From NCBI RefSeq assembly GCF_000186885.1, contig NC_014972.1, positions 420,001 through 452,000 on the forward strand: 32,000 bases of DNA, read 5' to 3'. A program made the translations under genes and the position numbers. The notes below the pieces were generated by a model. It was not told the DNA's origin and searched no databases. It saw nothing but the letters and a program-made list of their open reading frames with translations. This document shows, piece after piece, positions 4,288-30,704 of this stretch. How positions within the stretch are numbered: position 1 is the stretch's first letter; each line of letters starts with the position of its first letter. Origin of the DNA: Desulfobulbus propionicus DSM 2032 (GTDB taxonomy: Bacteria > Desulfobacterota > Desulfobulbia > Desulfobulbales > Desulfobulbaceae).

Positions 4288-4317
4288 GGCCGTCTCTTTA
4301 TTAGAAGTGGTGAGGTT

Positions 4318-5311: not shown

Positions 5312-5322
5312 ACGTTACCGAA

Positions 5323-5604
5323 TCAGGCCGGTTCAAGCTCCAGGTGAACACGCCGACCTAAAGCCGTTGCAATGTTCACTAAAGCATCCAAGGAGAAACG
5401 AGAGACACGACCACGCAATAAATCATTGATACGGGGTTGAGTCACACCGCAATGCAAGGCGGCATCGGCCTGCTTCCATTCATTGGCTTTAATAATGGCT
5501 GCAATCTGGCGCATCAGTTCAGCCCTTGCCCGAAGATTGGCAGCCTGTTCCGGTGTGTCGGTTAATGCATCCCAAATATTGTTATAGGTTTCCATTTCGA
5601 TCAT
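5323..5604 (-). CDS. higA: HigA-type XRE-family antitoxin (93 aa)
   Basis: It carries an HTH (QADAALHCGVTQPRINDLLRG) and the SLDALVNIATALG tail typical of this antitoxin family. It overlaps the toxin stop by 4 nt. Confidence 0.7.
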   Translation of the reverse strand: MIEMETYNNIWDALTDTPEQAANLRARAELMRQIAAIIKANEWKQADAALHCGVTQPRINDLLRGRVSRFSLDALVNIATALGRRVHLELEPA

Positions 5605-5933
5605 TTGAACACCTTCATCAGTTCAGAGTATCGGAATTTAGCAAGGTCGATATCCTTTCTTGAAGTTGCTTGCGTTTTCTTCTGAAATGCGTGGAGCACA
5701 AACACCGCGTCAGCAAGCCTTGCAGTATAGATAATGCGGAAAGTTCCGGATTCATCCCAGATGCGAATTTCTTCTACTCCTTTGCCGATAGAAGGCATGG
5801 GCTTAAAATCATCTGGCTGTTCCCCTCGTTGCACCTTATCAAGCTGATAACCGGAATCCTGCCGGGCACCCTCCGGAAAGGAACGTAAGCACTTCAAAGA
5901 ATCCCCGAGAAATCGAATCACTTTCATAAACAA
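5601..5933 (-). CDS. higB: HigB / RelE-superfamily toxin (Gp49-like, 110 aa)
   Basis: The motifs GVEEIRIWDESGTFRIIYTARLADAVFVLHAFQKKTQ are typical of phage Gp49/HigB-like toxins. The toxin-first gene order matches HigBA. Confidence 0.7.
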   Translation of the reverse strand: MFMKVIRFLGDSLKCLRSFPEGARQDSGYQLDKVQRGEQPDDFKPMPSIGKGVEEIRIWDESGTFRIIYTARLADAVFVLHAFQKKTQATSRKDIDLAKFRYSELMKVFK

Positions 5934-6100
5934 ATTATATTCAATTGGATATAAAAAAACAAGCTTAAATGTGTCCCGAAAGCCTTGAAGCTGAAGGATT
6001 TTTGAAGGACATTTTCCCCCAAAAATAAGGAAAAGAAAAGAGCTGTGTGGAGAAAAATATAATAAAAATAGCTATATAGATCGGGAAAGCGTGCTGTTTT

Positions 6101-6148
6101 GCGGCCTTTCACGCCGGCAACACCGGTTCAAATCCGGTTGGGGACGCC
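6101..6148 (+). other. 3' fragment of tRNA-Glu(UUC): anticodon loop, variable loop, T-arm, acceptor 3' strand and CCA; attR-like remnant
   Basis: cggc-CTTTCAC-gccgg-caac-accgg-TTCAAAT-ccggt-tggggac-g-cca parallels the 3' two-thirds of bacterial tRNA-Glu (which ends ...GGGGACGCCA). No GTCCCCA 5' acceptor strand or D-arm lies upstream. Confidence 0.7.
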
Positions 6149-6155
6149 AAAATAT

Positions 6156-6192
6156 CAGCCTGTTAGCTCTCGCCAGCTAGCAGGCTTTTTTT
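6156..6192 (+). terminator. Rho-independent terminator downstream of the tRNA fragment
   Basis: The stem AGCCTGTTAGCT / AGCTAGCAGGCT is 12 bp with one G-U pair. The loop is CTCGCC, and a run of 7 T follows. Confidence 0.8.
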
Positions 6193-6404
6193 GTTGGTGA
6201 GTCACAAGTGACTTGTCCTCCTTTCAAAATACACAATGAGGGCAAACAGACTTCAGCAGGTGAATATATTGCGTTCCCCTTTTTCGTGCCTGCTGGTCAA
6301 AATTTCAATCCTTTCATTCTTTCCTTTGCAAATCCTGTAACTTGACGGTATTGCTTGCACACTAGACCGATTGTTCCCCCGCATCCCGCCGGGTGAGGAC
6401 CGCC

Positions 6405-9704: not shown

Positions 9705-9725
9705 TAAGAATTGAATCGCTTTGCT

Positions 9726-9774
9726 TGTAGGAAAATCGAACAGGCGAACACGCTGTCTGTCCGATTTTCCTACA
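9726..9774 (+). promoter_or_regulatory. Long inverted repeat: activator-gene terminator or enhancer (UAS) for the downstream sigma-54 promoter
   Basis: TGTAGGAAAATCG (9726-9738) and CGATTTTCCTACA (9762-9774) pair perfectly. The repeat is extendable to 19 bp with one mismatch, and each arm reads TGT-N11-ACA. It lies 22 nt after the activator stop and ~210-255 bp upstream of the -24/-12 element. Confidence 0.4.
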
Positions 9775-9836
9775 ATTTGCTCTTTGCCTGAAAATTCCCT
9801 TTTTTCAAGATGATCACTCTTTTTCTCCTCCGCGCT

Positions 9837-9851
9837 GTTCGATTTTCGAAC
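9837..9851 (+). promoter_or_regulatory. Palindrome GTTCGA-TTT-TCGAAC, candidate enhancer-binding site
   Basis: This perfect 6-3-6 palindrome lies ~135 bp upstream of the -24/-12 promoter. Confidence 0.3.
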
Positions 9852-9981
9852 ATTTGCGCGATCCCCCGCAAGGGAACCCCCGAGGGGGTGCCTCCGGTGG
9901 CCATCGCCGGTACAGCTGGCTTGGAAATGATGATGCCATATTTCAGTGTGTTGCGACTCGTTCGCGGCGCAAATCTGCACT

Positions 9982-9997
9982 TGGCACGCTCGTTGCT
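9982..9997 (+). promoter_or_regulatory. Sigma-54 (-24/-12) promoter TGGCACGCTCGTTGCT
   Basis: It matches TGGCACG-N4-TTGCW exactly, with GG at 9983-9984, GC at 9995-9996 and correct spacing. It lies ~75 nt upstream of the first operon ATG (10072) and directly downstream of a sigma-54 activator gene. Confidence 0.75.
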
Positions 9998-10071
9998 TTA
10001 GCTGTGGCAACCAGTTTTGCTGTCTGTCAGCATAAGAACGAACATCAAGCACCTATTTGAGGAGGTTCATC

Positions 10072-10920
10072 ATGAAAAAAACAGTTTTCACAGCCGCTGT
10101 TATCTTTGCTTTGTCCGCCGGAGTTGCCCATGCCGATCATCGTGATCGCGGCGACTCGACGTTGCTGGGTTCTTTCGGCAGCAAACATCGAGGCGGGGCG
10201 ATCCATCACAACACCTTTGCCGCGCAGCCCATCACCAACACCAATTCCAACGTCATCACCATCAATACCTCGGCAACCCAGACCGCCACCCAGACCGCAA
10301 GCGCCACTTCGCCGGTGACCCAGACAACAACTTCCACCTCCACCTCTGACTCCGGCAGCAACGCCACCGCCACCAGCAGCAACACAGACAGTTCCACCAC
10401 CACGGCTGGCACCGATACCTCAGCCTCCACCACCGATTCGACCACGGACAGCACCACGGATACCACGGCGTCGACCACCGACAGCACCGATACCGCCGCT
10501 GACAGCACGGCCGATACCGCGACCGATGCCACCGCCGATGCCACGACCACCAGCGAGCAGAACGACGACCAGGATGGTCTCCAGGCCGAGATCCGCAACG
10601 AAATCAAAGGAGTTGGCAATATCTCCAGCACCATCTCCGGTGGCAACAACAACTTGGCCAACGCCGCCTCCATCTCCGTAGGCGGCAGTGCTCAGAGCAC
10701 TGATTCCATCATCAACAAGGTCAGTTCCGCCGGCAACATCTCCAGTTCGATCAAAGGCGGCAACAACAACCGCGCCAATGCAGCGTCCATCTCCATGGGC
10801 GGCGGCATCGCGGTCAAAGGCCGGGTGATCAACGAGGTTGAGGGCGCCGGCGATATTTCCAGTTCCATCGAGGGCGGCAACAACAACCAGGCTAACGCCG
10901 GTTCCATCGCCATCAACTGA
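10072..10920 (+). CDS. Secreted repeat protein A: signal peptide, Thr/Ser/Asp-rich linker, three 39-aa GGNNNxANAxSI (curlin-like) repeats
   Basis: GAGGAGG lies 6 nt before the ATG at 10072 (the ORF track uses a TTG at 10057). The signal peptide ends AHA. The GGCAACAACAAC motif occurs at 10642, 10759 and 10876, exactly 117 nt apart. Confidence 0.7.
   Translation: MKKTVFTAAVIFALSAGVAHADHRDRGDSTLLGSFGSKHRGGAIHHNTFAAQPITNTNSNVITINTSATQTATQTASATSPVTQTTTSTSTSDSGSNATATSSNTDSSTTTAGTDTSASTTDSTTDSTTDTTASTTDSTDTAADSTADTATDATADATTTSEQNDDQDGLQAEIRNEIKGVGNISSTISGGNNNLANAASISVGGSAQSTDSIINKVSSAGNISSSIKGGNNNRANAASISMGGGIAVKGRVINEVEGAGDISSSIEGGNNNQANAGSIAIN
10267..10554 (+). repeat. Low-complexity Thr/Ser/Asp/Ala-coding tract inside protein A
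   Basis: I count 39 Thr and 20 Ser in 96 residues. The DNA is built from reiterated ACC/ACG/GAC/AGC/GAT units (for example ACCACCGATTCGACCACGGACAGCACCACGGATACCACG). Confidence 0.8.
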
Positions 10921-11009
10921 TGTGCTTCCTCCCTCCGTGTCGCGGTCCGCATGTGCTGCGGCACGGAGTATCCCCTATTGCAAATGTTATCCTTCTGCGG
11001 AGAACCATC

Positions 11010-11603
11010 ATGAAAGTCCTGCATATTCTTACCATCGGCGCCCTGCTGCTGGCACCGGCCCTCAGCCAGGCGGACATGCTCGGCCTGCGCGTCGAGAACC
11101 GGGTCAAGGGCGGCGAGTACAGCGCCCGAACCAAGGGCAACAACAACATCGCCAACGCGGCCTCGATCAACATGACCGGCAGCACGGCGCGCGAGGTCAA
11201 CAATCGGGTTCAGGCCGCCGGCGCGATCTCCGCCTCGGCCACCGGCAACAACAACACCGTCAACAGCGCTTCGGTGCAGATGCAGAACTCGACCGCCGGT
11301 AAAGTGTCCAATACGGTCAAGGTTGATTCCATCGGCAACACGGTGCGGGGCAACAACAACATCTCCAATATCGGTTCGGTGTCGATGCGCAATTCCGCGG
11401 CCGGCGTGGTGACTTCCGAAGTGACCGGAGGTCAGTTGAACGGCGTGATCGACGGCAACAACAACCGCCTCAATGTCGGGTCGGTGCAGATGACCGAGGC
11501 CCAGCGCGGTGAGGTAATGACCAAAACCGATCTCGGCAACGTCTCGGTGTCGATGTCCGGCAGCAATTCCAGCGTGGCCATCGATTCGGTGGTCGCCAAC
11601 TGA
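11010..11603 (+). CDS. Secreted repeat protein B: signal peptide plus five ~35-aa GNNNxxNxxSV (curlin-like) repeats (197 aa)
   Basis: The signal peptide is MKVLHILTIGALLLAPALSQA. GGCAACAACAAC occurs at 11136, 11244, 11349 and 11454 (spacing 108, 105 and 105 nt), followed by one degenerate terminal repeat (SGSNSSVAIDSV). The ORF-track start at 10920 is an upstream extension. Confidence 0.7.
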   Translation: MKVLHILTIGALLLAPALSQADMLGLRVENRVKGGEYSARTKGNNNIANAASINMTGSTAREVNNRVQAAGAISASATGNNNTVNSASVQMQNSTAGKVSNTVKVDSIGNTVRGNNNISNIGSVSMRNSAAGVVTSEVTGGQLNGVIDGNNNRLNVGSVQMTEAQRGEVMTKTDLGNVSVSMSGSNSSVAIDSVVAN

Positions 11604-11623
11604 CAGCGACGGAGGATCATTCC

Positions 11624-11947
11624 ATGCAAACGATCACCGCGACCCTGGTGCTGTCCCTGCTGCTGACGGGAATCTTCCGCGCGGACCCCGTCCGCGCCGA
11701 CGACCTCGATGACGGCATCACCATTGATGATTCGGCCTATTCGTACGGCAATATCAGCAGTTCGAGCCAAAATTTCTCCTATCTCGCCCAGCGGGCGCGG
11801 AGCAAGGCCGCATCGGGGTCCGGTGACGTGGTCCTGTCCGACAGCGGCGCGCTCAACAGCGTCATCCTCGATGCAGGGGCGCAGATCAATGGCGACATCA
11901 TCATCATCGATGATTCTTCGGGCGACAAGACCGTTATTTCCAATTAA
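11624..11947 (+). CDS. Small secreted hypothetical protein (107 aa)
   Basis: It has a GGAGGA RBS and the signal peptide MQTITATLVLSLLLTGIFRADPVRA. The mature part is Asp/Ser/Ile-rich. It sits where a curli accessory factor would, but I recognise no similarity. Confidence 0.55.
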   Translation: MQTITATLVLSLLLTGIFRADPVRADDLDDGITIDDSAYSYGNISSSSQNFSYLAQRARSKAASGSGDVVLSDSGALNSVILDAGAQINGDIIIIDDSSGDKTVISN

Positions 11948-11966
11948 TCCAGCGTGAGGGACGAGC

Positions 11967-13460
11967 ATGCCGTTTGTGACCATCAGACCCCGATCCCGGC
12001 GAGCGCCGGGCCTTTTGCTGTTGATGCTGCCGCTGGTTTTCCTGGGGCTGACCTCCTGCTCCTCGATTGACCCGCGCCAGGTGGATGTTGATCTGCCGTC
12101 GGACATGCCGGAGGTCAAGGAAACCAGCTTCGACAAGCCGCTGGCCGAATTGGGGCGGATGACCCAGATCTACGGCAAGCGGGCTTATATTCAGGGCAAG
12201 GATATCACCGACTTCACCGGCCTTTCCACCTATGGGTACGGTGAGATCCCGCGTGACATCACCGAGATGACCAAAAGCGCGCTCAACGCCATCGGCGGCA
12301 ACGTGGTCTACATCCCCTACAGTCCGGTGTTCATCAACAACCAGATGGTGACCGGTTATTCCAATTTCCAGGGCAAGCTGATTCCCGATGTCGTCCTCTC
12401 CGGCGGCATCACCGAATTTGACCGGGGCCTGGAAACCAGGGGCAGCAACACCGATTTCGGTGTGACCACCAAACCGTTCAACGTCAACGAATCCTGGGTG
12501 CCAGGCGATACCATATCCCTCGATTACAACCAGGAAGATCAGGATAGCCTGGCCCGGATCACCCTTGATTTCAACCTGCTCGATTTCCAGACCATGTCTG
12601 GCGTGGCCCGCATGCAGACGGTCAACACCATCAACGTCTACAAGGCGGTCAAGGAAAAAGAGCTCGGCTTTACCATCTTTGGCCCGACCTTCGGCCTCAA
12701 GGGCACGGTCAAGAAGGTGCAGGGCCGGCATGCGGCCATCCGTCTGCTGGTCCAGACCAGTGTGCTGCAGATCGTCGGCAAATACCTCTATCTGCCCTAC
12801 TGGAAGCTGATCCCCAACATGAAGCCCGATCCAGTGGTGCTCGACAAGATCCGTCAGGATTTCCGCAACCTGAGCCAAACCGACAAGGTCGGCGAAATGC
12901 AGACCTGTCTCTACCTCAAGGGGTACAATGTGCCAGTTACCGGCCAGCTCGATGCCCAGACCCAGTCCGCTCTGACCAGCTTCAAGCAGCAGTATGCAGT
13001 CCAGGGGGCGGGTGACGCCGAATTGTATGTCGCGCTGTGGAGTTCACTGGGTGACAACATGGAGCAGGTATCCTATCGCCGCGAACTGCTGGCCAGGGCC
13101 TTGGAGAATCCAAGCCAGCAGGCGGCGGTCGCCAAGGCGCCGGCGAAGAAGGAACCGGCCAAAGAGGTGGCCAACAGGGCGGCTGCACCTTCCGAGAAGG
13201 TGGCGACCCGCAAGGCGGCCGACAAATCCAGCGGGAAAAAGGATGTTCCGGCCCAGCGACGGGCCAGTTCCGGCCCGGCTGCCGTGGCCAGCACCGCGCC
13301 ATCCGAGATCAAGGCCGCAGGATCGGTCTCGAAAGAATCGACTCCTGTCAACCAGGACAAGGATCGCAACGACATCGCCCAGGTGTTGCGTAGTCAGCCG
13401 GTCCTGGGGAATAAAAATTCAGCGGAGGCAATGATCAATGAAAGGCGCATGGCCGAATAA
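11967..13460 (+). CDS. CsgG/HfaB-family outer-membrane lipoprotein fused to a peptidoglycan-binding-like domain and an Ala/Lys/Pro-rich tail (497 aa)
   Basis: The lipobox is LGLTSC. CsgG-like blocks are present (DITEMTKSALNAIGGNVVYIPY, DVVLSGGITEFDRGLE, ITLDFNLLDFQT, and AAIRLLVQTSVLQIVGKYL). A PG_binding_1-like segment follows (MQTCLYLKGYNVPVTGQLDAQTQSALTSFKQQY). Confidence 0.7.
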   Translation: MPFVTIRPRSRRAPGLLLLMLPLVFLGLTSCSSIDPRQVDVDLPSDMPEVKETSFDKPLAELGRMTQIYGKRAYIQGKDITDFTGLSTYGYGEIPRDITEMTKSALNAIGGNVVYIPYSPVFINNQMVTGYSNFQGKLIPDVVLSGGITEFDRGLETRGSNTDFGVTTKPFNVNESWVPGDTISLDYNQEDQDSLARITLDFNLLDFQTMSGVARMQTVNTINVYKAVKEKELGFTIFGPTFGLKGTVKKVQGRHAAIRLLVQTSVLQIVGKYLYLPYWKLIPNMKPDPVVLDKIRQDFRNLSQTDKVGEMQTCLYLKGYNVPVTGQLDAQTQSALTSFKQQYAVQGAGDAELYVALWSSLGDNMEQVSYRRELLARALENPSQQAAVAKAPAKKEPAKEVANRAAAPSEKVATRKAADKSSGKKDVPAQRRASSGPAAVASTAPSEIKAAGSVSKESTPVNQDKDRNDIAQVLRSQPVLGNKNSAEAMINERRMAE

Positions 13461-13758
13461 TTTCGGAGGCGGTTTGCTGGCGGGGGGGCTGGTGGTCCTG
13501 TTGGCCGGTCTGCTCATGGGAGCGGTTCATCACGATCCGCCTTCCCTGCCGGTGGCGGTGCTCGACCCGCAGGTGGAACGGCCCGTGCCCCTTGCCAGCA
13601 ATGGTCGTTATCAGATTGTCACCTGGCAGGGCGGCGGCGGATACGGGGCCTTTGTCCTCGACACCGCGACCGGCACCACCAAGGTCGCCTACAGCTCGAT
13701 CAAAGGACCGGGTGGCAAAAGCGTCAACAATATCGGCAAACCCTTTGCCCAGATGTAA
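13438..13758 (+). CDS. Small membrane-anchored hypothetical protein (106 aa)
   Basis: It has a GGAGG RBS and one N-terminal TM segment (GGLLAGGLVVLLAGLLMGAV). It overlaps the upstream gene by 23 nt. Confidence 0.5.
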   Translation: MKGAWPNNFGGGLLAGGLVVLLAGLLMGAVHHDPPSLPVAVLDPQVERPVPLASNGRYQIVTWQGGGGYGAFVLDTATGTTKVAYSSIKGPGGKSVNNIGKPFAQM

Positions 13759-13768
13759 GGAGTATGCA

Positions 13769-14950
13769 ATGCAGTGCAGTGATCGGACGGAGGAGTTGAA
13801 AATGAAGTGGTGGCAAAAGTTGCAACCCGTGGCTGCGGAGTTGATCATCCTGGCGCTAGTGCTGGCTGCTGTGCTGGCGGCCAACCTCGGCCATGCGGCC
13901 ACAGCCGGTGGCCCGGCGCAGGGGTATGGATTGAAGATCTTCCGCGTGGAGTCGGGACTGTATCCCTTTGTTCATGTCTACATGCGCACCTTTGACCAGG
14001 AAATGAATCCCCTGGTCAACCTCAACGTGCTCAACATCGGGGTGATGGTCGAGGGACGGGCCTACGATCCGAGAAAAAAACAGTATGTCATTCAACCGTT
14101 GCGCAACCGGGAGGAAGCGACCCGCTCCATCCTGGTGCTCGACACCAACAAGATGCTGAAGGGGCAGGATTTTGAAGCCATGATCCGGGCAGCGGCCCGG
14201 TTCATCGACGCCAAGCGGCCCCAGGATCAGGTGGCCCTGATCGCCCTGGACAACAGTGGCGAGGGATATACGGTCTTGTCCAATTTCGACCGCGAACCGG
14301 GCATCCTCGGTCGGCGGCTGGCCGATCTGCAGCCGCGCGGCGACAAGACCAGGCTCTACGACGGGGTGGCGGCCGCCATGCAGATGGCCGGTGGCGCGGT
14401 GGGCGGCGATTCCTCCAGCGAGGTGGAATACATTGTTTCGACCTCGATCATCGTGCTGGGGAGCGGCCGGGATGACGACAGCGCCATCAGCCGTTCCGAT
14501 CTGATGACCCGCATTTCCAGCCTGAAAATTCCGGTGCCGATCTATTCGTTGTGCTTTACCGGTCCCGAGGGCAAGGATCAGCGCAACCTGCAGGCCCTGT
14601 CGAAGAATTCCTTCGGCAAGTACTACTCCATTGGCGGCGCCTACGACACCATCACGCGCAATATCGAGGATATTCAAAACATCATGCAGAGCGACTACGT
14701 GCTCACCTTCCGGGCCTACATTCCGGTGGACGGCGGCAGGCACAATGTCAAGATCGGGGTCGAATATCCGACCGGCAGCGGCATCATGTACTATGACGCC
14801 TCCGTGTTCGAGGCCATCGAACCGCCGACCTTCCCCCGGATCATCGAGGCGCAGCAGAAGCTCGACAAGGCGATCCCCGCGCTCAAGGATGAGGAATTGT
14901 ATCTGAAAAATCCTTACGCTCCGGCGGCGGTACCGGGCGGGAAAAGCTGA
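13769..14950 (+). CDS. Exported or membrane-anchored von Willebrand factor A (VWA) domain protein
   Basis: The VWA pattern is SILVLDTNKMLKG...VALIALDN...GDKTRLYDG...IIVLGSGRDDDS, and the MIDAS position reads DTNKM rather than DxSxS. The ATG at 13769 has an AAGGAG RBS. The alternative ATG at 13802 (MKWWQK...) also has a GGAGGAG RBS. The ORF-track start at 13592 overlaps the previous gene. Confidence 0.7.
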   Translation: MQCSDRTEELKMKWWQKLQPVAAELIILALVLAAVLAANLGHAATAGGPAQGYGLKIFRVESGLYPFVHVYMRTFDQEMNPLVNLNVLNIGVMVEGRAYDPRKKQYVIQPLRNREEATRSILVLDTNKMLKGQDFEAMIRAAARFIDAKRPQDQVALIALDNSGEGYTVLSNFDREPGILGRRLADLQPRGDKTRLYDGVAAAMQMAGGAVGGDSSSEVEYIVSTSIIVLGSGRDDDSAISRSDLMTRISSLKIPVPIYSLCFTGPEGKDQRNLQALSKNSFGKYYSIGGAYDTITRNIEDIQNIMQSDYVLTFRAYIPVDGGRHNVKIGVEYPTGSGIMYYDASVFEAIEPPTFPRIIEAQQKLDKAIPALKDEELYLKNPYAPAAVPGGKS

Positions 14951-15051
14951 TCCTGTCCTTCGGCGTGGATTGATAGCGCAACACGGTTCTTGTGCAGCCT
15001 CCGACCGCCCTCCCGAGCACCCGGGGGCTGCACTTTTATTCTCCTCATCGC

Positions 15052-17667
15052 ATGGCATCCTCCAGGCATCATTCTTCCCCCAGCGAACATACCGCTTATT
15101 TGGCAGCCAGGGCTGCCGGATGCGCCCATCGGGAGTATTGTCTCACCTCGGCGAGCACAACCATCGGACGCGATGGCACCCTCTGCGACATTGTCCTTAC
15201 CGGCGCCACTGTCTCGCGCCGCCACGCCTGCTTATCTCGAACGGGTGAAACCGACTATCAGCTCCACGATCTCCAGTCCACCAACGGAGTATTTGTCAAC
15301 GGCGAGCGGATTAAGGGTTCGCGCTTTCTGCGTGATGGCGACCTGATCGGGCTTGGCACCGCCCTGCCGCATCTGCGTTTCCAATATCACAGCATCCGGG
15401 AACCGCATCACCTGATTCTGCCACCCCAGGCCCAGTGGCTGATCGGCCGGGCTCCCCACTGCGATCTCTCCCTGCCCTTCGAGCCAACGGTCAGCTCCCA
15501 CCATGCCACCCTCAGTAGCCAAGATGGCACACTGCGAATCGCCGACGCCCACAGCCTCAATGGAACCTGGGTCAACGGCTCGAACCGGTTCAAGGCGTTC
15601 CTTGCCCCCGACGACACCGTGGTCATCGGGTCCACGCATTTCCAGTTCCGTCTCCGGGAGGACGGTTCGCTGTCCGTGCTCCAACGGGAATATGGCCAGT
15701 CGGTCAAACTGGAATGTGTCGGTCTCCACCGCACCGCCCCGCGTGCGAACGGCACGGCGAGAATGCTGCTCAACGACATCACTCTGAGCATTGAACCCGG
15801 CGAATTTGTAGGTATTCTCGGCCCTTCGGGCGCGGGCAAGACTACCCTGCTCACCGCCCTCAATGGTTTCAGCCGTCCGGACCGGGGGTGGGTGCTGTGC
15901 AACGAGACGCCCATGGACAGCGCCTCGGCCCTGTTCCGCAACACCATCGGCTATGTGCCCCAGGATGATATTCTCCACCGGGAGTTGAGCGTGCAGGCCA
16001 GCCTTGAATATGTCGCCCGCCTGCGGTTGTCGCCGGATCTTTCTCCACGCCAACGTGCCGAGATCATCGACAACACGATCGAAACCCTTGGATTGCACCC
16101 GGTGCGGCACCTGCCGATCGACCAACTGAGCGGCGGCCAGCGAAAACGGGTGTCCATCGGCGCGGAGCTGCTGGTTCGCCCAAGCCTGCTCTTCCTCGAC
16201 GAGCCCACCTCAGGACTGGATCCCAGCACCGAGGACCGGCTGATGCATCACTTCCGGGACATGGCCGACCACGGCACCACGGTGATCATTACCACCCACC
16301 TGCTCGACAACCTCGACCTGCTGGACAAGGTGGTGATTCTCGCCCAGGGACGGGTGGTCTTCTTCGGCGCCCCCTCCGAGGCCCTAACCTTCTTCGGCAC
16401 GGAGCAGCAGCCCCTTGCCCGGGCAACCGGTATCTTCGCCGTGCTCACCGAGGCGGACACCCCGTCCTCGGCAGCGGCATCCTCCTGGAAAGGGCAGGAG
16501 GAGATCGCCACCCATCATGCCGCCCGTTTCCTCGCCTCTCCCTGGTTTCGGCAACATATCGAACAGCGGCTTTCGCCGGCAGCCCACGCGTGCATGGCCA
16601 TGGATACCGCCTCCCCCTCTCGGCCGCTAGCACGGCTGCGCACCCTGTGGGCCGATCGTTCACGGCGCGGCCATGGTTTTTCTCCTGGCGAATGGCTGCG
16701 TTCCTGGTGCATTCTTTCGCGTCGCCACCTGCACATCCGTGCCAGTGCCGGCAAACGGCTGCTGCTGTTCCTGCTCATTCCCATGGCGCTGGCCCTGGTG
16801 ACCCTGTCGCAGCATATCCCTGGCGTGGCCAGCGACGCGGTAGTGGCGGAACGGAGGGCCGAAATAGAGGCCCTGGTTGCCCCAGGCGGCGCCCTGATGG
16901 ACACGCAGCTCAAGCTCCTCCTGTCTCCGGCCGGCATTGGCGAAACCCGTTCGGGCGCTGAATTGCTCCACGCCCTGCGTTACGAAGGCATCGCGCATTT
17001 GCCGGTTCCCATGAGCGTCTTGCTGATGATCGTCATGACCGCCGTGTTTTCCGGCACCCTGATCGCCTGTCAGGAAATTTCCACCGAGCGGTCGATTTAC
17101 CTCCGGGAGCGGATGTCCCATCTGCGCATCCTGCCGTACCTTGGGGCGAAAATGCCTTTTTGCCTGGGGCTTGCCGCCCTGCAGTGCCTGATCTTTCTCT
17201 CCCTGTGCTGGCTCAACCCCGCCCTGCGCCAGGCGGATTTCTTTCCGGTCTGGCTGACCATGGTCGCCGTGGCCTGGAGTTCGGTGGCCATTGGGCTGAC
17301 CCTGAGCGCTGTTGATCCGACCGGCGGCCGGTTGTCGGTGATGCTGACCGTGGCCGTGGTCCTGCCGCAGTTGCTGCTTTCCGGCGGCCTCGGTCCTGAT
17401 TTTTACGGGCGCATGCACGGCCCGCTGCGCCTGGCGGCGGATCTGCTGCCGGCCCGCTGGGGGCTGGAGATGGTGTGCACCGCGCTGTTCGATACACTCA
17501 AGGGCGAGGGCGCGCGATGGATTCCAGCCTTTGTCCGTGAGGTGATAGGTTTTGACTTCGGCCAGGGCGTCTATTATAGTGGCATGATCTTTCTGTTGGC
17601 TCAATTCCTGCTTTGGGTGCTGTTCTGCACAGGATTCCTGACTTACCGCGATAGACGATCATGTTGA
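15052..17667 (+). CDS. FHA-FHA-ABC ATPase-ABC-2 permease fusion (Rv1747-type exporter)
   Basis: It has two FHA domains (TIGRDGTLCDIVL...SRRHACL...STNGVFVNG and LIGRAPHCDLSL...SSHHATL...SLNGTWVNG). The ATPase shows Walker A GPSGAGKTT, signature LSGGQRKRVSIG and Walker B LLFLDEPTSGLD. The C-terminus is multi-TM. The start is uncertain, either the ATG at 15052 or the GTG at 14992. Confidence 0.85.
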   Translation: MASSRHHSSPSEHTAYLAARAAGCAHREYCLTSASTTIGRDGTLCDIVLTGATVSRRHACLSRTGETDYQLHDLQSTNGVFVNGERIKGSRFLRDGDLIGLGTALPHLRFQYHSIREPHHLILPPQAQWLIGRAPHCDLSLPFEPTVSSHHATLSSQDGTLRIADAHSLNGTWVNGSNRFKAFLAPDDTVVIGSTHFQFRLREDGSLSVLQREYGQSVKLECVGLHRTAPRANGTARMLLNDITLSIEPGEFVGILGPSGAGKTTLLTALNGFSRPDRGWVLCNETPMDSASALFRNTIGYVPQDDILHRELSVQASLEYVARLRLSPDLSPRQRAEIIDNTIETLGLHPVRHLPIDQLSGGQRKRVSIGAELLVRPSLLFLDEPTSGLDPSTEDRLMHHFRDMADHGTTVIITTHLLDNLDLLDKVVILAQGRVVFFGAPSEALTFFGTEQQPLARATGIFAVLTEADTPSSAAASSWKGQEEIATHHAARFLASPWFRQHIEQRLSPAAHACMAMDTASPSRPLARLRTLWADRSRRGHGFSPGEWLRSWCILSRRHLHIRASAGKRLLLFLLIPMALALVTLSQHIPGVASDAVVAERRAEIEALVAPGGALMDTQLKLLLSPAGIGETRSGAELLHALRYEGIAHLPVPMSVLLMIVMTAVFSGTLIACQEISTERSIYLRERMSHLRILPYLGAKMPFCLGLAALQCLIFLSLCWLNPALRQADFFPVWLTMVAVAWSSVAIGLTLSAVDPTGGRLSVMLTVAVVLPQLLLSGGLGPDFYGRMHGPLRLAADLLPARWGLEMVCTALFDTLKGEGARWIPAFVREVIGFDFGQGVYYSGMIFLLAQFLLWVLFCTGFLTYRDRRSC

Positions 17668-19085
17668 ACGACGACATCCAGACGCTGATCGACCCCAGCG
17701 TTGTCCAGCCGCTCAAGGCCGTGGCGGTCAGCGACAGTGGCGTGCTGATCGCCGACCGGTATCGGATGCTGCGACCGCTTGGCGAAGGAGGCATGGGCAA
17801 TGTCTACTTGGCCGAGGATCTGGTGTTGGCGCGGCGCGTGGCGATCAAGACCATTCGGCCGGAGTTGAGCGGCAACGAAGAGATCCGCTCGCGCATCAAG
17901 CGTGAATGCCGCATGCATGCGGCCATTGGCGTCCATCCCCATATCATCACCCTCTACGACTCGGTCGAGGAAAACGGGCATATCTACCTGGTGATGGAGT
18001 ATTTTGCCGGCGAGACCCTGGCCGCTCGGCTTGCCTCGCAAACTGGCGAGCAAGGCCTCCCGCTGGACCAGACGCTCGATATCGTCCGCCAGGTACTCCG
18101 CGCCTTGGCCTGCATCCATGACCAGGGGATCGTCCATCGCGACATCAAGACCGCCAACATCCTCCTCCAGCAGGGGACCGACGGCAATCTGCGCGTCAAG
18201 CTCGCCGATTTCGGCATTGCCCGGGCGGGGATGGCGGCGCAAACCGTGACCCGCCTGACCGCTCTGGATGTTCAAGGGCCGGGGACGCCGGTGTACATGG
18301 CGCCGGAGCGGATCGACCCGCAGACCTTCGGCGGGGTCTGTCCCGCTTCGGACCTTTACGCGGTGGGCATCATCCTCTTTGAACTGCTCACCGGACACCC
18401 CCCCTTCACCGGCTCCATGACCGAGATTTTTTCCGGCCATCTGGTCCAGCCGCCGTGCCTGGACCGCCTGCCAGCCACGCTTCCCCCCACGGTACTGGCG
18501 GTTCTTCGCACCGCCTTGGCCAAACAGCCATCGGAGCGGTTTCAGCGCGCCCAGAGCTTTCTTGAAACCTTGGAGGGGGGGCACCCGAGCTTGGACCATG
18601 CCTTCATTCCGCCCCGGGCACCCTCCCACCCGCCGGTTCACGCTCAGACGCTCTTGGCCGTGTCGGCGGAACCGACGGCGCAAAGCGAGTCCGTTACCCT
18701 ACTGAACCCGTCGTGCGGGGCTGGCCGTGGCTCAGATCCTTCGCGGCGATGGCGGCAAGGGTTGATGTATGCGGCACTGGCCTGCGTGCTGGTGCTTGTC
18801 AGCGGATGGTATCTGTACGATCATTTTGTCACCCCATCCTTGACCGCCTCTGCGCCCGTCAACAGCCAAGAAATCACCACGACGGGATCCGAAAAGGACA
18901 CGGTTGCCGTCCCTGCCAGCGTTCCGGACGACATCGAGGCGGCCAAAACCGTCACCGCCTTGCAGACGTTGGAAAAGGTCCGGCAGCAAAAAACCATCGA
19001 ATCCATGGCCGCCGCCGAGCGCCCCGGGGGCAATCCGGCAAACGAGTGGCAGGTGATCGAAGACCGCTCGCGAAGAATACGCTGA
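17661..19085 (+). CDS. Hanks-type Ser/Thr protein kinase with one TM segment and a short extracytoplasmic tail (474 aa)
   Basis: Kinase motifs are GEGGMGNVY, VAIK, HRDIKTANILL, DFGIAR and GTPVYMAPE. The TM segment is LMYAALACVLVLVSGWYLY. It overlaps the ABC gene by 7 nt. Confidence 0.9.
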   Translation: MLNDDIQTLIDPSVVQPLKAVAVSDSGVLIADRYRMLRPLGEGGMGNVYLAEDLVLARRVAIKTIRPELSGNEEIRSRIKRECRMHAAIGVHPHIITLYDSVEENGHIYLVMEYFAGETLAARLASQTGEQGLPLDQTLDIVRQVLRALACIHDQGIVHRDIKTANILLQQGTDGNLRVKLADFGIARAGMAAQTVTRLTALDVQGPGTPVYMAPERIDPQTFGGVCPASDLYAVGIILFELLTGHPPFTGSMTEIFSGHLVQPPCLDRLPATLPPTVLAVLRTALAKQPSERFQRAQSFLETLEGGHPSLDHAFIPPRAPSHPPVHAQTLLAVSAEPTAQSESVTLLNPSCGAGRGSDPSRRWRQGLMYAALACVLVLVSGWYLYDHFVTPSLTASAPVNSQEITTTGSEKDTVAVPASVPDDIEAAKTVTALQTLEKVRQQKTIESMAAAERPGGNPANEWQVIEDRSRRIR

Positions 19086-19099
19086 CCCACCCTTTGCTC

Positions 19100-19657
19100 A
19101 TGTCAGGTAAATTGGTCCTCGTTGTTCTTGCTGTCGGCAGCTTGCTTCTTGGCGGCTGCGCGCCCCTGGTGTTCACCGCCGGGGCCGGAACCGGATACGT
19201 GGCGACGCAGGATAAACCGCGGAACAAGATCGAGGCCTTTTTTGACGATCTGGCCAGATCAATCCGGCAAACGACCCGCAAGATCACCGGGGCTCCCCCC
19301 AGCCGGCGGAAAAGCACCGCCAAGCCGACGTCCACATTGCAGCTGGCCATTCAAAAAGCCACTCTCTCCCCGGCCAAGGTCCGCACCGGCGATCAAATTA
19401 CCCTGACCCTGCGCTACAGCATTGCCGGTGCGCCGAAAAAAGGGATCCAGGTTCGAGAGAAAAGTTCCTTGTCCAAGGACGGCAAGACGTTGAGTCTCTT
19501 GAAGGACGAATCCTCGCAACGGGAAAACGGGGTGTGGGAAAATACCTTGTCTTTCGCGGTCCCCCAATCGGCTAAACCGGGCAGCTACACTGTGACCATG
19601 CGGATCAGCGCCCAAGGCCTGAACCGGAACGTCCGAAAGACCTTTACCGTCCAGTGA
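19100..19657 (+). CDS. Lipoprotein with a beta-sandwich-like C-terminal domain (185 aa)
   Basis: The lipobox is in MSGKLVLVVLAVGSLLLGGC. The ORF-track start at 18713 is an Arg-rich extension overlapping the kinase gene. No clear RBS is present. Confidence 0.55.
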   Translation: MSGKLVLVVLAVGSLLLGGCAPLVFTAGAGTGYVATQDKPRNKIEAFFDDLARSIRQTTRKITGAPPSRRKSTAKPTSTLQLAIQKATLSPAKVRTGDQITLTLRYSIAGAPKKGIQVREKSSLSKDGKTLSLLKDESSQRENGVWENTLSFAVPQSAKPGSYTVTMRISAQGLNRNVRKTFTVQ

Positions 19658-19713
19658 GGATCATGCGGGTGTTCCGGTTGCGCATCTCCAGTCCTGGCGA
19701 ACGGAGCTGAACC

Positions 19714-20514
19714 ATGGAGCTCCTTGAGGGGCATTGCCGCATGGGCGGTTTCCAGGTCGTCTATGCCGGGGCAACCGATCCGGGGCGAGTGCGTCGCTGC
19801 AATGAAGACAATCTGCTGATCTATCCCGAAGCCGGCGTCTTTGCCGTGGCCGACGGGCTGGGTGGGTTGGATGCGGGAGATGTTGCCAGCAGCACGGCGC
19901 TCGCGCATCTGCGAGAGCTTGTCCCGACCCCTTTCGCCGGCAACAGGTTTTTTGCCTTGTTCAACGACAAACACCCATTGCGGCAACTTGAAGCGGTGGT
20001 GGCCGCGGTCAATCGCCGAACCTATGAGCATCGAATGACCCTGGGCAAGAACATGGCCACCACCTTGGCCATGGTGCAGCTGCGAGGCGACAAGGTCGTG
20101 CTTGCCCACGTCGGTGACAGCCGCGTCTATCGCTGGCGCGACAATGCATTGCACTGTCTCACCAGCGACCATTCCTTGGTCAATGAACTGGTGCGGAAAG
20201 GGGCCTTGACTGCTTCCCAGGCCAGACAGTCCTCCCAGCGCCACGTCATCACCCGCGCGGTCGGCGCGGAACCGACCGTCATGCCCACCTTGCAACAACA
20301 GCCGCTGGCGGTAGGCGACATCCTGCTGCTGTGCACCGACGGGTTGACCAGTATGCTGTCGGACAGGGACATCGGTCAATGCCTTGGTAACGCGGCCACC
20401 ACCATCGGCGGCAGCGTGGCGCAACTCATCACCTTGGCCAACCAAGCTGGTGGGCATGACAACATCACCGTGGTGGGCGTGATCCTGCTGCCGATAGAAG
20501 AGAAGTCGGATTGA
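19714..20514 (+). CDS. PP2C-family Ser/Thr phosphatase (266 aa)
   Basis: Motifs are RRCNEDN, FAVADGLGG, AHVGDSRVY, LLLCTDGL and GGHDNITVV. Confidence 0.9.
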   Translation: MELLEGHCRMGGFQVVYAGATDPGRVRRCNEDNLLIYPEAGVFAVADGLGGLDAGDVASSTALAHLRELVPTPFAGNRFFALFNDKHPLRQLEAVVAAVNRRTYEHRMTLGKNMATTLAMVQLRGDKVVLAHVGDSRVYRWRDNALHCLTSDHSLVNELVRKGALTASQARQSSQRHVITRAVGAEPTVMPTLQQQPLAVGDILLLCTDGLTSMLSDRDIGQCLGNAATTIGGSVAQLITLANQAGGHDNITVVGVILLPIEEKSD

Positions 20515-27117: not shown

Positions 27118-28092
27118 CTAGCGGACCTCGCGACCGCGTCCGGAATCGCTGAGGTCGGCCAAGGCGCGGGGATAGGGGCGGAGAAAGACCTGAGCCAGCA
27201 GATACTGGTTGTCGAAGCGCAGGGCATGGGCCTCCAGCAGCCGGGTGACCGCCTGCAGGGGTAGCCGCTCGTCGCGGTATTCCTCGATCGAGTTGATCAC
27301 ATGCTGTTTTTCCGCGGACCCGAGATGTTCGGAGATCCAGCCAAAGGCATGAAAGAGGGTGTTGATCACCCCGGAGATGCGCAGCGGCGCATCCAGGATA
27401 TGACGGAGTTCCTCGCGGTAGAGGTGGAAGACTTCGGCGGCCGGCCGTTTTTCGTGGTTGGCCACGATCTTGCCGGCCTGGCGAAAACGGCTCTGGTTGT
27501 AGGCGAGGAAAAGCAGCTTGTGGCTGGCATGGAAGGCGACCAGCGCGCCCATCTCCGGCCGCTCGTTTAAGCTGCGGAATCGCGCCAGGGTGAAGAGCTT
27601 GATCAGGAAGTGCTCGCGCAAGGAGAGGTTGGTCAGCCGCATTTCGTCCTCGATCGCGGCTCCGGCAAAGGTGTGCCGCACCTGTTCCCCGAACAGGCCG
27701 CCGGCTTTCTTGAGAAACTGCGGCTTGTCGATCCCCTGGTAGATCTTGGTATCATAAAGGCCGCAGCTCGGCGACTTGCTCTTGAGGATGGCGCCGTCGA
27801 TCTGCGGATGCTCCTTGAAGATGGCGTCGATGGTGGCTTGCAACTGGGTGGTCACCTCCCGGCCGGTGGCGGGCTGATAGACCACCAGCCCCCCCTCCGA
27901 CTGGCACAGGCGGATCGGCGCCCGGGGGATGCCCAGACCGCAGTCGGTTTCCGGGCAGACCGGGATTATCTCCACCTGGGTCTGCAACTGCTCGACAAAG
28001 GGATTCTTGAGGATGGCGCCATCATAACGGCAGGCGGCAAAGCCCAAACAACGACTGACCAGGACTGTGGGGCGGGGAAAGGTGTCGTTCAT
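27118..28092 (-). CDS. DUF523 (TudS-like Cys-cluster) plus DUF1722 (YbgA-like) fusion protein (324 aa)
   Basis: The N-terminus is VLVSRCLGFAACRYDG...IPVCPE...GLGIPR. The C-terminal half is YbgA-like (HFLIKLFTLARF...HKLLFLAYN). It lies 34 nt downstream of hgcB on the same strand. Confidence 0.7.
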   Translation of the reverse strand: MNDTFPRPTVLVSRCLGFAACRYDGAILKNPFVEQLQTQVEIIPVCPETDCGLGIPRAPIRLCQSEGGLVVYQPATGREVTTQLQATIDAIFKEHPQIDGAILKSKSPSCGLYDTKIYQGIDKPQFLKKAGGLFGEQVRHTFAGAAIEDEMRLTNLSLREHFLIKLFTLARFRSLNERPEMGALVAFHASHKLLFLAYNQSRFRQAGKIVANHEKRPAAEVFHLYREELRHILDAPLRISGVINTLFHAFGWISEHLGSAEKQHVINSIEEYRDERLPLQAVTRLLEAHALRFDNQYLLAQVFLRPYPRALADLSDSGRGREVR

Positions 28093-28126: not shown

Positions 28127-28414
28127 TCAGCAGCAGCCGGACAGGAGCTTGCGGCCCAACAGCCGGTTGATCCAGGCGGCGAGGATGGCCACGGCGCACC
28201 CGACTCCTGGGGTGACGGTGAGGGCCTGGACCGGGCAGTTGCGGGCGCAGGCCCCACACTCCATGCACAGATCCCTATCGCCAACCTTTAATTTTTCACC
28301 TTCCAGCGCGAAGATGCGGTGTGGACAGACCACGGTGCAGTTGCCGCAGCCAATGCAGCGATCAAAATCGACCTCTAGGGTCGCAGTGTCGTCGATGTAG
28401 CGATAGCCGTGCAT
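28127..28414 (-). CDS. hgcB: HgcB, mercury-methylation 2x[4Fe-4S] ferredoxin (95 aa)
   Basis: It has two CxxCxxCxxxCP motifs (CIGCGNCTVVCP and CMECGACARNCP), the conserved GVGCA Cys and a C-terminal vicinal Cys pair (SGCC-stop). GGAG precedes the ATG at 28414, 13 nt after the hgcA stop. Confidence 0.85.
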   Translation of the reverse strand: MHGYRYIDDTATLEVDFDRCIGCGNCTVVCPHRIFALEGEKLKVGDRDLCMECGACARNCPVQALTVTPGVGCAVAILAAWINRLLGRKLLSGCC

Positions 28415-28427
28415 GGGGCGTCTCCGT

Positions 28428-29447
28428 TCAATGCAAAAAGGGGCTGGCCAGCCAGAGCACCAGGGCGAGGCAGGTGGCCGCGAGCTGCACCGGCAACCCC
28501 CGGCGCATCTCGTACTCGACACCGCTGGGCGAGGTGAAGGGGGTGGAGCCGGTGAAATTCATCGCCAGGTAGGAGCTGAGGCTCAGCACCCAGGAGATCA
28601 GGGCAACCTGTTCCACTGCCGCCAGGCGGGCTGCGAGCAGCAGCCACGCTCCCAGTGCCGCCGGCAGTCCGGCCCATACGCCTTTGAGCCAGAACTGACG
28701 GCCGGGCAGCCAGGGCAGCAGCATGGGGGTGAGCACCGCCCCGCCAAGCATGCCCAACCCGGTGGCGGCGAGCAGTGCCTCGCCACGCTCCAAGGCCGCG
28801 GTAAGGGAAAAAATTGTCGGACTGATGCCGGAAAGGAGAAAGCCAAGGATCAGCATGGCCAGCAGGGGCTTGGCCAGGAGAAACAGCTCCACCGGAATCA
28901 GCACTGCCCGGTCCGCCAAGGGGAAGGTGACCTCACGCATGGCTTCGTCGCACCGGTTGCCCTGACCAAGATAGGCGGGCAGATCGGCGGCGCGGACTGG
29001 GCCGAAAAGCACGGTAAACCCGCAGCCCTTGCGCACCGCCTGCGCCGACACACCCGGAGCGGCCAATTGCGGCAGGATCAGTTCCCGATGGGCGACCACT
29101 TCGTTCAAGCGGTATCGTTGCACGCAGTCGATCACTTCCCAGGTGGAAAAGGTGCCCTTGCCGGCGGCACACCAGACATTGATCCCTCGGGTGTCGACCA
29201 CCAGCAGCCAGGCGTCGAGGCCGCCCAGCTGGTGGCGCAGGGCGTCGAAGGAAAGTTTGTAGTTGGCGCTCACCAGTACGGCTGACTGGTTTCCCGGCGA
29301 TCCCACGGCGTAGAGGCCGGGGGCAACCTTGTAGTTGCGGCGGATGATGCCGATGCGGGCGCCGATGGTGCCCCATAGATCACGGCTGCTTCTTGTGGTG
29401 GTCACTTGCGGCACCGGGCCGGCGGGCGTGTCGATGAAGCCGGTCAC
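28428..29447 (-). CDS. hgcA: HgcA, corrinoid-dependent mercury methyltransferase (339 aa)
   Basis: The signature cap-helix motif GINVWCAAGKG lies at 29157-29180, with its Cys at residue 93. The N-terminal domain is corrinoid-binding-like and the C-terminal half has ~5 TM segments. The start is a GTG with no obvious SD. Confidence 0.9.
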   Translation of the reverse strand: MTGFIDTPAGPVPQVTTTRSSRDLWGTIGARIGIIRRNYKVAPGLYAVGSPGNQSAVLVSANYKLSFDALRHQLGGLDAWLLVVDTRGINVWCAAGKGTFSTWEVIDCVQRYRLNEVVAHRELILPQLAAPGVSAQAVRKGCGFTVLFGPVRAADLPAYLGQGNRCDEAMREVTFPLADRAVLIPVELFLLAKPLLAMLILGFLLSGISPTIFSLTAALERGEALLAATGLGMLGGAVLTPMLLPWLPGRQFWLKGVWAGLPAALGAWLLLAARLAAVEQVALISWVLSLSSYLAMNFTGSTPFTSPSGVEYEMRRGLPVQLAATCLALVLWLASPFLH

Positions 29448-29762
29448 AAAGGGGCAGAGGCTGTAGCCTGCCCGCTCATGGACCCCGGACCGGGGTTCCG
29501 GTTTCGGCCCTCAGCAGGGTGCCTCGGGCGGTGACGGGGCAAAGAGCGGCAACGGTTGGGGCGAGGCGGGACAGGGATTGATCGGTTGCATGGAGACTCG
29601 TTTCCTCGTGAACGGTAACTGTACGGTAAAGATACCGTGCCGTTGGGTATCAAGCCAGGTTTTTCTCCGAGCATCCCAGGCTCGACGGCGGGCCGCGCAT
29701 CGAGTAGGCTGACCCCAACGCCCTTGTCTCTTTCTGGTTGTCCTCTTCTTGGGAGCACGTCC

Positions 29763-30704
29763 ATGACCATCGCCGCCCTCGCCCTGCACGCCAGCGGCCT
29801 CCTTCAGCAGCGGGCCGACACCGCCCGACGGCTGCTGGCCCCCTGCACTCTCTGCCCGCGCCGTTGCCGGGTCAACCGCCTCGCCGGTAAAACCGGTCTG
29901 TGCGGAACCGGTGCCCAGGCGCGCATCGCCAGCTACGGCCCCCATTTCGGCGAGGAGCAGCCCCTGGTCGGCACCCACGGCTCCGGTACCATCTTTCTGG
30001 CCGGCTGCAACCTGCGCTGCTGCTTCTGCCAGAACTTCGACATCAGCCAGGGCAACGATCCCGGCCAGGAGGTGGATGCCCATGAGTTTGCCGCCATCAT
30101 GCTGGAGTTGCAGGCCACGGGCTGCCACAACATCAACCTGGTCACCCCCAGTCATGTGGTGCCGCAGCTCCTCGACGCCCTGATTCCGGCCATCGAGGGT
30201 GGGCTCGACATTCCCCTGGTGTTCAACTGCAGCGGTTATGAGAGCGTGGAGACACTCGCCCTGCTCGACGGCGTCATCGACATCTACATGCCTGATGTCA
30301 AATTCTGGCACCTGGCCACGGCGGCCCGCTATGCGGCGGCCCCGGACTATCCCCAGCGGGTGCGTGCGGCCCTGATCGAGATGCATCGCCAAGTAGGGGA
30401 TCTGGTGATCGGCCCGGACGGTTGTGCCCGCTCGGGCCTGCTCGTCCGCCATCTGCTCATGCCTGGCCTCATGGAGGAAACCGAGGCTATCCTTGCCTTT
30501 ATCGCCACCCGGCTCTCGCCCCGGACCTACGTCAACATCATGGCCCAGTACCACCCCTGCGGCCGGGCCGATCGCTATCCGGAGCTGATGCGCACCATCA
30601 CCGGCGAGGAGTATCGCCAGGCCCTGGACGCGGCGCGCAAGATCGGCCTCACCCGTCTTGACCACCCGGATGTGGGCCGTCTGCTCAGGCAGCTCGGTGT
30701 CTGA
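29763..30704 (+). CDS. Radical SAM protein, PflX/COG1313-like (313 aa)
   Basis: The CNLRCCFCQN cluster motif follows an N-terminal CTLCPRRC...C Cys group. GGGAG precedes the ATG at 29763. The ORF-track start at 29637 is an extension. Confidence 0.75.
   Translation: MTIAALALHASGLLQQRADTARRLLAPCTLCPRRCRVNRLAGKTGLCGTGAQARIASYGPHFGEEQPLVGTHGSGTIFLAGCNLRCCFCQNFDISQGNDPGQEVDAHEFAAIMLELQATGCHNINLVTPSHVVPQLLDALIPAIEGGLDIPLVFNCSGYESVETLALLDGVIDIYMPDVKFWHLATAARYAAAPDYPQRVRAALIEMHRQVGDLVIGPDGCARSGLLVRHLLMPGLMEETEAILAFIATRLSPRTYVNIMAQYHPCGRADRYPELMRTITGEEYRQALDAARKIGLTRLDHPDVGRLLRQLGV

Follow-up and report, generated by a model that had tools for sequence, protein, structure and literature searches.

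Where does the hgcA gene of Desulfobulbus propionicus DSM 2032 begin, and is the TGA codon found in frame upstream of its annotated start a stop or a selenocysteine (Sec) codon? The question is raised by the hgcA-hgcB gene pair located in the window studied here, i.e., the whole stretch of 32,000 nucleotides (nt) to which all positions below refer, with both genes read from the minus strand. Such a pair serves as the recognised genetic marker for methylmercury (MeHg) production by microbes, and a preliminary description of this DNA had reported it as complete, with all signature residues, between 28127 and 29447. All the features listed there are indeed present. However, neither the completeness nor the 5' boundary at 29447 was borne out, because an in-frame TGA and conserved coding sequence continue upstream to an ATG, and the list of signature residues omitted the N-terminal PCUGP motif with its cysteine-selenocysteine (Cys-Sec) pair. 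We conclude with high confidence that the two genes form the hgcAB operon for mercury methylation in D. propionicus DSM 2032, which is strain 1pr3 (PMC4683176), and that its hgcA has 387 codons, with UGA27 read as Sec aided by a hairpin. The hgcAB system and its presence in this strain were already known, and the UGA/selenocysteine extension of HgcA has already been published by Haft and Gwadz (2022/2023). The sole new contribution here is the description of the UGA-linked hairpin and of its absence from the genes that carry a Cys codon at the same position (Cys-type genes). Legacy numbering refers below to the form of HgcA with 339 amino acids (aa) and full-length numbering to the 387-aa form. 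The features on which the argument turns are the following:

28428..29591, minus strand: hgcA, corrected model, 387 codons plus stop, with one internal stop (codon 27) in the translation
29589..29591, minus strand: probable hgcA start ATG, with GAGGAAA 11 nt upstream
29511..29513, minus strand: in-frame TGA, putative Sec27 in the motif PCUGP (residues 25-29), 22 codons upstream of the GTG
29482..29496, minus strand: hairpin ACCCCG[GUC]CGGGGU, resembling a selenocysteine insertion sequence (SECIS), beginning 14 nt after the UGA
29445..29447, minus strand: legacy GTG "start", Val49, the start used in GenBank ADW16620.1
28428..29447, minus strand: legacy hgcA open reading frame (ORF), 339 aa from the GTG, with a TGA stop

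The best surviving alternative is that the legacy gene model is right, i.e., that HgcA has 339 aa from the GTG at 29447, the TGA being a normal stop codon within an untranslated leader. Both the GenBank annotation and the ORF list give the 339-aa form, which is 100% identical to Despr_0439 (ADW16620.1) of D. propionicus DSM 2032 (taxid 577650). The NCBIfam HgcA profile begins to match at residue 12 of that form, and a short form of the protein from strain ND132 is active in Escherichia coli (see below). The comparison with relatives argues the other way. Their upstream DNA was aligned to the window, giving 79 assessable sequences (the window and 78 loci). The codon at the Sec position was TGA in 59 of them (the window and 58 loci), TGC in 16 and TGT in four, and never TAA or TAG. 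In the TGA-type relatives the open frame upstream of hgcA always ends at the TGA, which precedes the residue aligned to the window GTG by exactly 22 codons. At that residue the 59 TGA-type sequences have GTC (38), GTG (13), GTT (7) or GTA (1), so that 46/59 lack a start codon there, and 55/59 have no ATG, GTG or TTG at all between the TGA and the aligned valine. Conservation of the protein extends to either side of the TGA (...APC * GPKPEPRSGVHERAGY..PF | V.GF...), with the flanking C and GP invariant. The entropy of the 21 codons after the TGA was 0.68, 0.48 and 1.32 for the first, second and third codon positions, compared to 0.89, 0.73 and 1.56 in the undisputed coding region, and the variability of their third positions thus looks coding-like. 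Besides, in 20 Cys-type homologues a Cys codon occupies the position of the TGA within one continuous ORF, and no Shine-Dalgarno-like sequence was found before the legacy GTG of the window (CTGCCCCTTT). To judge from this alignment the legacy GTG is an internal valine codon and not a start, and we consider the 339-aa model very unlikely. The cluster listing gives a WP accession for all the neighbours of the 339-aa HgcA and none for this protein, which is consistent with its replacement by RefSeq.

For the longer gene, an in-frame start codon was present upstream of the Sec or Cys codon in every locus examined, with an ATG 23-58 codons upstream in all but one. The window contains a single in-frame ATG upstream of the TGA (29591..29589), 26 codons before it, and the N-terminus that results (MQPINPC...) resembles that of one relative (MQPIAPF..., locus L007). 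The exact start codon is therefore most likely the ATG at 29591. The N-termini of several Cys-type loci (L046, L055, L075, L077 and others) carry extra Cys clusters upstream of the CC codons, e.g., KGCCTSDDCCSS, CECGK...DACCG and SCCDASCDAS. These are the "Cys packing" remarked by Haft and Gwadz.

If the frame is continuous, how is the UGA read? It is followed in the window by the short hairpin listed above. A bacterial SECIS, such as that of E. coli fdhF, is a short hairpin located soon after the UGA, within the coding sequence and with G and U in its apical loop. A hairpin was present after the UGA in 57/57 distinct TGA-type sequences, with a mean stem of 6.1 bp, a spacer of mostly 11-15 nt and GUC, GGC, GGUCCA or CGUGCC as the loop. 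The pairing is kept by stems that differ in sequence (CCCCG/CGGGG, UCCAC/GUGGA, GAGCCCCG/CGGGGCUC and GGAUCCCA/UGGGAUCC among seventeen stem variants). By contrast, half of the Cys-type genes (10/20) lack any hairpin with a stem of 4 bp or more at this place, and a single one reaches 6 bp or more. With their centre fixed at one position, about 21 nt downstream of the UGA, hairpins of at least 5 bp were found in 90% of the TGA-type versus 10% of the Cys-type sequences. As a control, 64 background windows tiled through the same genes gave a mean frequency of 0.32 and a maximum of 0.85, none reaching 90%. The two background windows with 0.85 lie on the invariant VWCAAGK codons, where hairpins are equally frequent in the Cys-type genes (0.90). 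The element there (29157..29180 and the equivalent codons of the relatives) is a weak hairpin, TGGTG[CGC]CGCCG, found in about 85-90% of Sec-type and Cys-type genes alike. It was rejected as a UGA-linked signal since it follows a fixed peptide and is present in both types, most likely as a by-product.

A second alternative accepts the long frame and denies the Sec, i.e., the UGA would be bypassed or read otherwise (for example by near-cognate Cys or Trp read-through), or the long form would be a rare regulatory device. In its favour, Sec insertion is so far a prediction from the sequence, and Cys is the residue found at this position in the 20 homologues. Against it, the hairpin accompanies the TGA at the distance typical of a bacterial SECIS and is found in only a tenth of the Cys-type genes, the 59 sequences have TGA exclusively and never another stop codon, and D. 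propionicus DSM 2032 is a documented Sec-utilizing organism with 8 selenoproteins (Peng et al., 2016, Table S2). This explanation is accordingly hardly probable. Sec insertion at codon 27, as we infer it from these patterns, agrees with previous work. Haft and Gwadz described the same PCUGP extension of HgcA, with PCUGP perfectly conserved in 20 cases that include ND132 and GSU1440; D. propionicus is not named in the supplements of their preprint. The idea that HgcA is a selenoprotein is also cited in a PNAS paper of 2024 on purified HgcAB (PMC11588087), and a 2026 review of prokaryotic selenoproteomes includes both HgcA (CU) and HgcB (GVGU).

Several observations stand on the other side, among them some formal tests on the RNA that yielded little information. 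The count of covariation in a fixed register was barely above controls. One lineage has the 3' arm shifted by one base (UCCAC[GGUCCA]GUGGA), and this count was superseded by the controlled statistics given above on the hairpins of each sequence and on their position. RNAalifold produced no consensus structure from the gap-free 72-nt alignment of the 57 TGA-type sequences. Folded as a single sequence, the window element has a z of -0.58, a value ordinary for a sequence so composed, and favours a different pairing. The hairpin region had no match in Rfam at either gathering or permissive thresholds. The literature search found no demonstration of selenium in HgcA of any organism, nor any account of D. 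propionicus 1pr3 with hgcAB deleted. Finally, the annotated hgcA of ND132 was cloned and expressed with an N-terminal His tag, and the recombinant protein is able to methylate Hg in E. coli lysate (PMC11588087). The use of the annotated gene and the C93 numbering suggest that this recombinant protein lacked the extension, and therefore the Cys-Sec tail would not be strictly needed in vitro.

Is the protein downstream of this tail HgcA? Its parts, and those of its partner, are located as follows:

29157..29180, minus strand: cap-helix motif NVWCAAGK, legacy residues 90-97, with the Cys codon TGT at 29171..29169 (legacy Cys93, full-length Cys141)
28962..29339, minus strand: corrinoid-binding domain similar to that of the corrinoid iron-sulfur protein (CFeSP), legacy residues 37-162, from Pfam PF03599, PDB sequence matches and Foldseek
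28431..28919, minus strand: C-terminal membrane domain with five transmembrane helices, from hydropathy and AlphaFold
28415..28427, minus strand: hgcA-hgcB spacer of 13 nt, ACGGAGACGCCCC
28127..28414, minus strand: hgcB, 95-aa 2x[4Fe-4S] ferredoxin with its ATG at 28414, from NCBIfam and an exact GenBank match
28322..28357, minus strand: first CX2CX2CX3CP motif of HgcB, residues 20-31
28232..28267, minus strand: second CX2CX2CX3CP motif of HgcB, residues 50-61
28196..28198, minus strand: HgcB Cys73 in GVGCA, codon TGC
28130..28135, minus strand: C-terminal Cys94-Cys95 of HgcB (SGCC; TGC TGC), followed by the TGA stop

The identification made in the preliminary description stands, and the check by specific hidden Markov models that it had proposed has been run. 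The NCBIfam equivalog model of HgcA (NF040863) gave 443.2 bits (cut-off 275, E 5e-133) over profile positions 1-324 of 325, and that of HgcB (NF040864) 120.3 bits (cut-off 99, E 2e-35) over positions 1-93 of 93, both above the curated cut-offs, and the models of the paralogues (HgcAB-like fusions and CFeSP) remained below theirs. The motif GINVWCAAGKG was found as claimed, with the Cys at residue 93 of the 339-aa protein, and its NxWC core is present in 82/82 homologous loci, most of which were retrieved with other conserved peptides of HgcA. The sequence matches in the PDB were CFeSP chains (2h9a, 4c1n and 4djd; E = 1.7e-07) over residues 37-162. The PDB sequence search found no crystal or cryo-EM structure of HgcA, the nearest solved sequences being CFeSP large subunits. 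The "about five" transmembrane helices announced for the C-terminus agree with the hydrophobic segments at residues ~173-339 and with five long C-terminal helices predicted by AlphaFold. The modelled construct had 360 aa (28431..29510, minus strand), i.e., the part downstream of the Sec codon, and these helices span its residues 198-227 (kinked), 236-267, 273-295, 298-320 and 328-359. The model as a whole has a mean predicted local distance difference test (pLDDT) score of 80.5. Foldseek matched the model best to the integrative HgcAB model 9a0b and then to CFeSP structures. The 16 residues after the Sec have a pLDDT below 50, in a part of the alignment covered by the query alone. The cap-helix GINVWCAAGKG (construct residues 109-119) also has a pLDDT below 50 in spite of being invariant. 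The model lacks the cofactor by which this segment is presumably organised.

HgcB matches ADW16619.1 / WP_015723166.1 exactly, and all six window proteins that were compared, HgcA and HgcB included, are identical to GenBank entries of D. propionicus DSM 2032. HgcB begins 13 nt after the hgcA stop on the same strand, as had been stated, and the commonest spacer among the relatives is 11-13 nt. It has the two expected clusters (CIGCGNCTVVCP and CMECGACARNCP), the internal Cys of GVGCA and the terminal SGCC, all of which had been correctly noticed. Some HgcB proteins from other sources, a minority, have Sec at the position of Cys73 (Haft and Gwadz). The gene follows hgcA directly in 79/80 related genome loci. 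In the single exception, positions 1..2400 of locus L026 (metagenome-assembled genome Desulfobulbaceae S3730MH12), a gene for an MFS-type membrane protein comes directly after hgcA and hgcB was not detected.

The last alternative, that the pair is a non-methylating paralogue (a relative of the HgcAB-like fusions, or else a corrinoid protein of the acetyl-CoA pathway and the ferredoxin that goes with it), has next to no chance of being right. In its favour, Pfam taken alone shows only CdhD (PF03599, E = 1.6e-10) in HgcA and a generic Fer4 in HgcB. Against it, the paralogue models fail against the 443 bits of the HgcA model, hgcA and hgcB are separate genes, the 2h9a region aligned to NVWCAAGK has no Cys, a five-helix transmembrane domain is present, and the strain methylates Hg. 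In particular, the HgcAB-like fusion model (NF043039) was rejected with 203.3 bits for HgcA against a cut-off of 285 (51.7 for HgcB), the genes being separate, and the CFeSP gamma/large subunit (CdhE/AcsC) with 66.4 bits where 306 are required, the alignment being confined to the C-terminal ~125 residues of that model.

What does this operon do in the cell? The preliminary description predicted MeHg production and proposed an assay with isotope-labelled Hg(II), which in fact had already been carried out. Strain 1pr3 turns isotopically labelled Hg(II) into MeHg in culture and has been called a fast methylator (PMC4683176; methylation by 1pr3 is credited there to King, 2000, and Benoit, 2001). 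Desulfobulbus oligotrophicus, a close relative of D. propionicus, has no hgcAB and does not methylate Hg (PMC7862947). In ND132 and Geobacter sulfurreducens hgcAB is needed for MeHg formation (Parks et al., 2013, as summarised by Haft and Gwadz). In ND132, Cys93 of HgcA and Cys73, Cys94 and Cys95 of HgcB matter for the activity, the cobalamin of HgcA is bound with a Cys as lower ligand, and the methyl donor is S-adenosylmethionine (SAM) and not methyl-tetrahydrofolate (PMC11588087). By this scheme the HgcA of the window is a membrane-anchored corrinoid protein whose CFeSP-like domain holds cobalamin with Cys93/Cys141 as lower ligand. Its methyl-Co(III) gives the methyl group to Hg(II), the HgcB ferredoxin brings the cobalt back to Co(I), and Cys73 and the C-terminal Cys-Cys of HgcB probably handle Hg. 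Reading of UGA27 as Sec with the help of the hairpin 14 nt downstream would add an N-terminal tail with PCUGP, and this flexible Cys-Sec tail would most likely bind Hg(II) or thiol-bound Hg species. A more specific role, in which Sec27 is the primary acceptor that takes Hg(II) from thiol complexes and passes it to the methyl-corrinoid, is offered only tentatively, and we would sooner bet against it. If it were true, the MeHg output of D. propionicus and of most other methylators would depend on the selenium supply, and the "full-length" HgcA used in biochemistry to date would lack its substrate-capture arm.

The presence of hgcAB in D. propionicus 1pr3 adds nothing new, the strain having been a model methylator since about 2000. 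The consequence concerns rather the gene model. The widely used 339-aa version and the "Cys93" numbering stem from a gene call halted at the Sec codon, and sequence-only scans, primers, hidden Markov models and recombinant constructs based on it miss 48 N-terminal residues, among them the Cys-Sec pair, which is probably in contact with mercury. A review of mercury methylation by microbes that appeared in 2024 treats selenium only as an environmental inhibitor, and its silence on the Sec of HgcA indicates that the extension, although published, is still under-appreciated. As for the distribution of the locus, contigs 100% identical to the hgcAB locus of the window were found in the JGI metagenomes 3300028760 and 3300028730 (L081 and L082). 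Such identity indicates that the strain, or a near-clone of it, is present in both samples.

Do the neighbouring genes belong to the system? Those that flank the pair are:

29592..29762: region between hgcA and a divergent radical-SAM gene, from the ORF map
29637..30704, plus strand: radical-SAM gene divergent from hgcA, with a likely start near 29763 and weak matches to AmmeMemoRadiSam and activating-enzyme models
27118..28092, minus strand: DUF523 (2-thiouracil desulfurase-like, TudS-like) plus DUF1722 gene, 34 nt downstream of hgcB

The intergenic region is presumably the promoter region. The promoter and terminator scan of 26600-30000 revealed no sigma-70 consensus site and terminators only at chance level. 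The DUF523/DUF1722 gene may be co-transcribed with hgcB, since it is on the same strand at a distance of only 34 nt with no terminator in between. Seven close relatives keep the radical-SAM gene at this place before hgcA, with identities of 66-79% (for L001, a short fragment at 49%), and it is absent elsewhere. Both genes, together with a 134-aa ORF, were rejected as parts of the system because their synteny with hgcAB is restricted to the nearest Desulfobulbus relatives, whose HgcA is at least 67% identical, and the other loci lack them. Pfam and NCBIfam searches of the neighbours found no ArsR-type regulator adjoining hgcA, and a tRNA gene scan found no tRNA genes.

Two other regions of the window stand apart from the pair. 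Positions 1..6400 form a low-GC island of small genes (40-55% GC versus about 60% elsewhere) that resembles what is left of a filamentous prophage, or some other mobile island, and 7815..20514 is a signalling cluster on the plus strand, in which two ORFs at 10057..11603 had no Pfam matches. Their recognisable genes are:

1865..2713, minus strand: Zot-like P-loop protein, in the low-GC island
4390..4797, plus strand: CI-repressor-like helix-turn-helix protein, in the low-GC island
5601..5933 and 5323..5604, minus strand: Gp49/HigB-like and HTH_37 toxin-antitoxin pair, in the low-GC island
7815..9704, plus strand: FHA-GAF-sigma54 activator, in the signalling cluster
13592..14950, plus strand: VWA protein, in the signalling cluster
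14992..17667, plus strand: FHA-FHA-ABC transporter fusion, in the signalling cluster
17661..19085, plus strand: Ser/Thr kinase, in the signalling cluster
19714..20514, plus strand: PP2C phosphatase, in the signalling cluster

How does the locus compare with known systems? The hgcA hairpin resembles the SECIS of E. coli fdhF in being short, close to the 3' side of the UGA and inside the coding sequence, with a G/U loop. It differs in that its sequence is specific to hgcA and matches no Rfam model, SelB binding being putative. With the SAO-locus CU-motif selenoproteins (SaoL, SaoB and SaoC) and the MerT-family selenoproteins, HgcA has in common the vicinal Cys-Sec pair, which has been proposed in those proteins to bind a mercury-like metal (Haft and Gwadz), although their folds are unrelated to HgcA and the window contains no SAO locus. 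The HgcAB-like fusions (NF043039) have homologous corrinoid, transmembrane and ferredoxin modules, theirs being in a single polypeptide. The CFeSP large subunit (AcsC/CdhE; 2h9a, 2ycl, 4c1n, 4djd and 9fzy) has the same corrinoid-binding fold as residues 37-162 of HgcA. Unlike HgcA, it has no membrane domain and no Cys opposite NVWCAAGK, and it possesses a TIM barrel and, at its N-terminus, a [4Fe-4S] domain.

Among the true hgcAB pairs, that of G. sulfurreducens PCA (GSU1440 / GSU1441) can likewise be extended through a UGA to PCUGP. It belongs to a more distant lineage and, compared via the published sequence, differs after the Sec (GPKTPAVSGTINENVPGF...). The closest parallel is the pair of Pseudodesulfovibrio mercurii ND132 (DND132_1056 / DND132_1057), on which the family was founded and which has been tested genetically. 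In the literature searched D. propionicus 1pr3, in contrast to ND132, has neither deletion nor site-directed mutants, and the leader before the Sec has 26 aa in the window versus the minimal 14 aa reported for ND132. The HgcA of the window is 58-63% identical to Pseudodesulfovibrio HgcA (L017 and L039). The two-gene layout is the same, as are the cap-helix Cys at legacy position 93, the Cys73 and C-terminal Cys-Cys of HgcB and the PCUGP extension. When the sequences around the Sec were compared directly, ...DDAPCUGPRPDPRAGVFEKPGYAVEPFV of ND132 and ...PEAPCUGPKPEPRSGVHERAGYSLCPFV of the window were identical at 17/28 residues.

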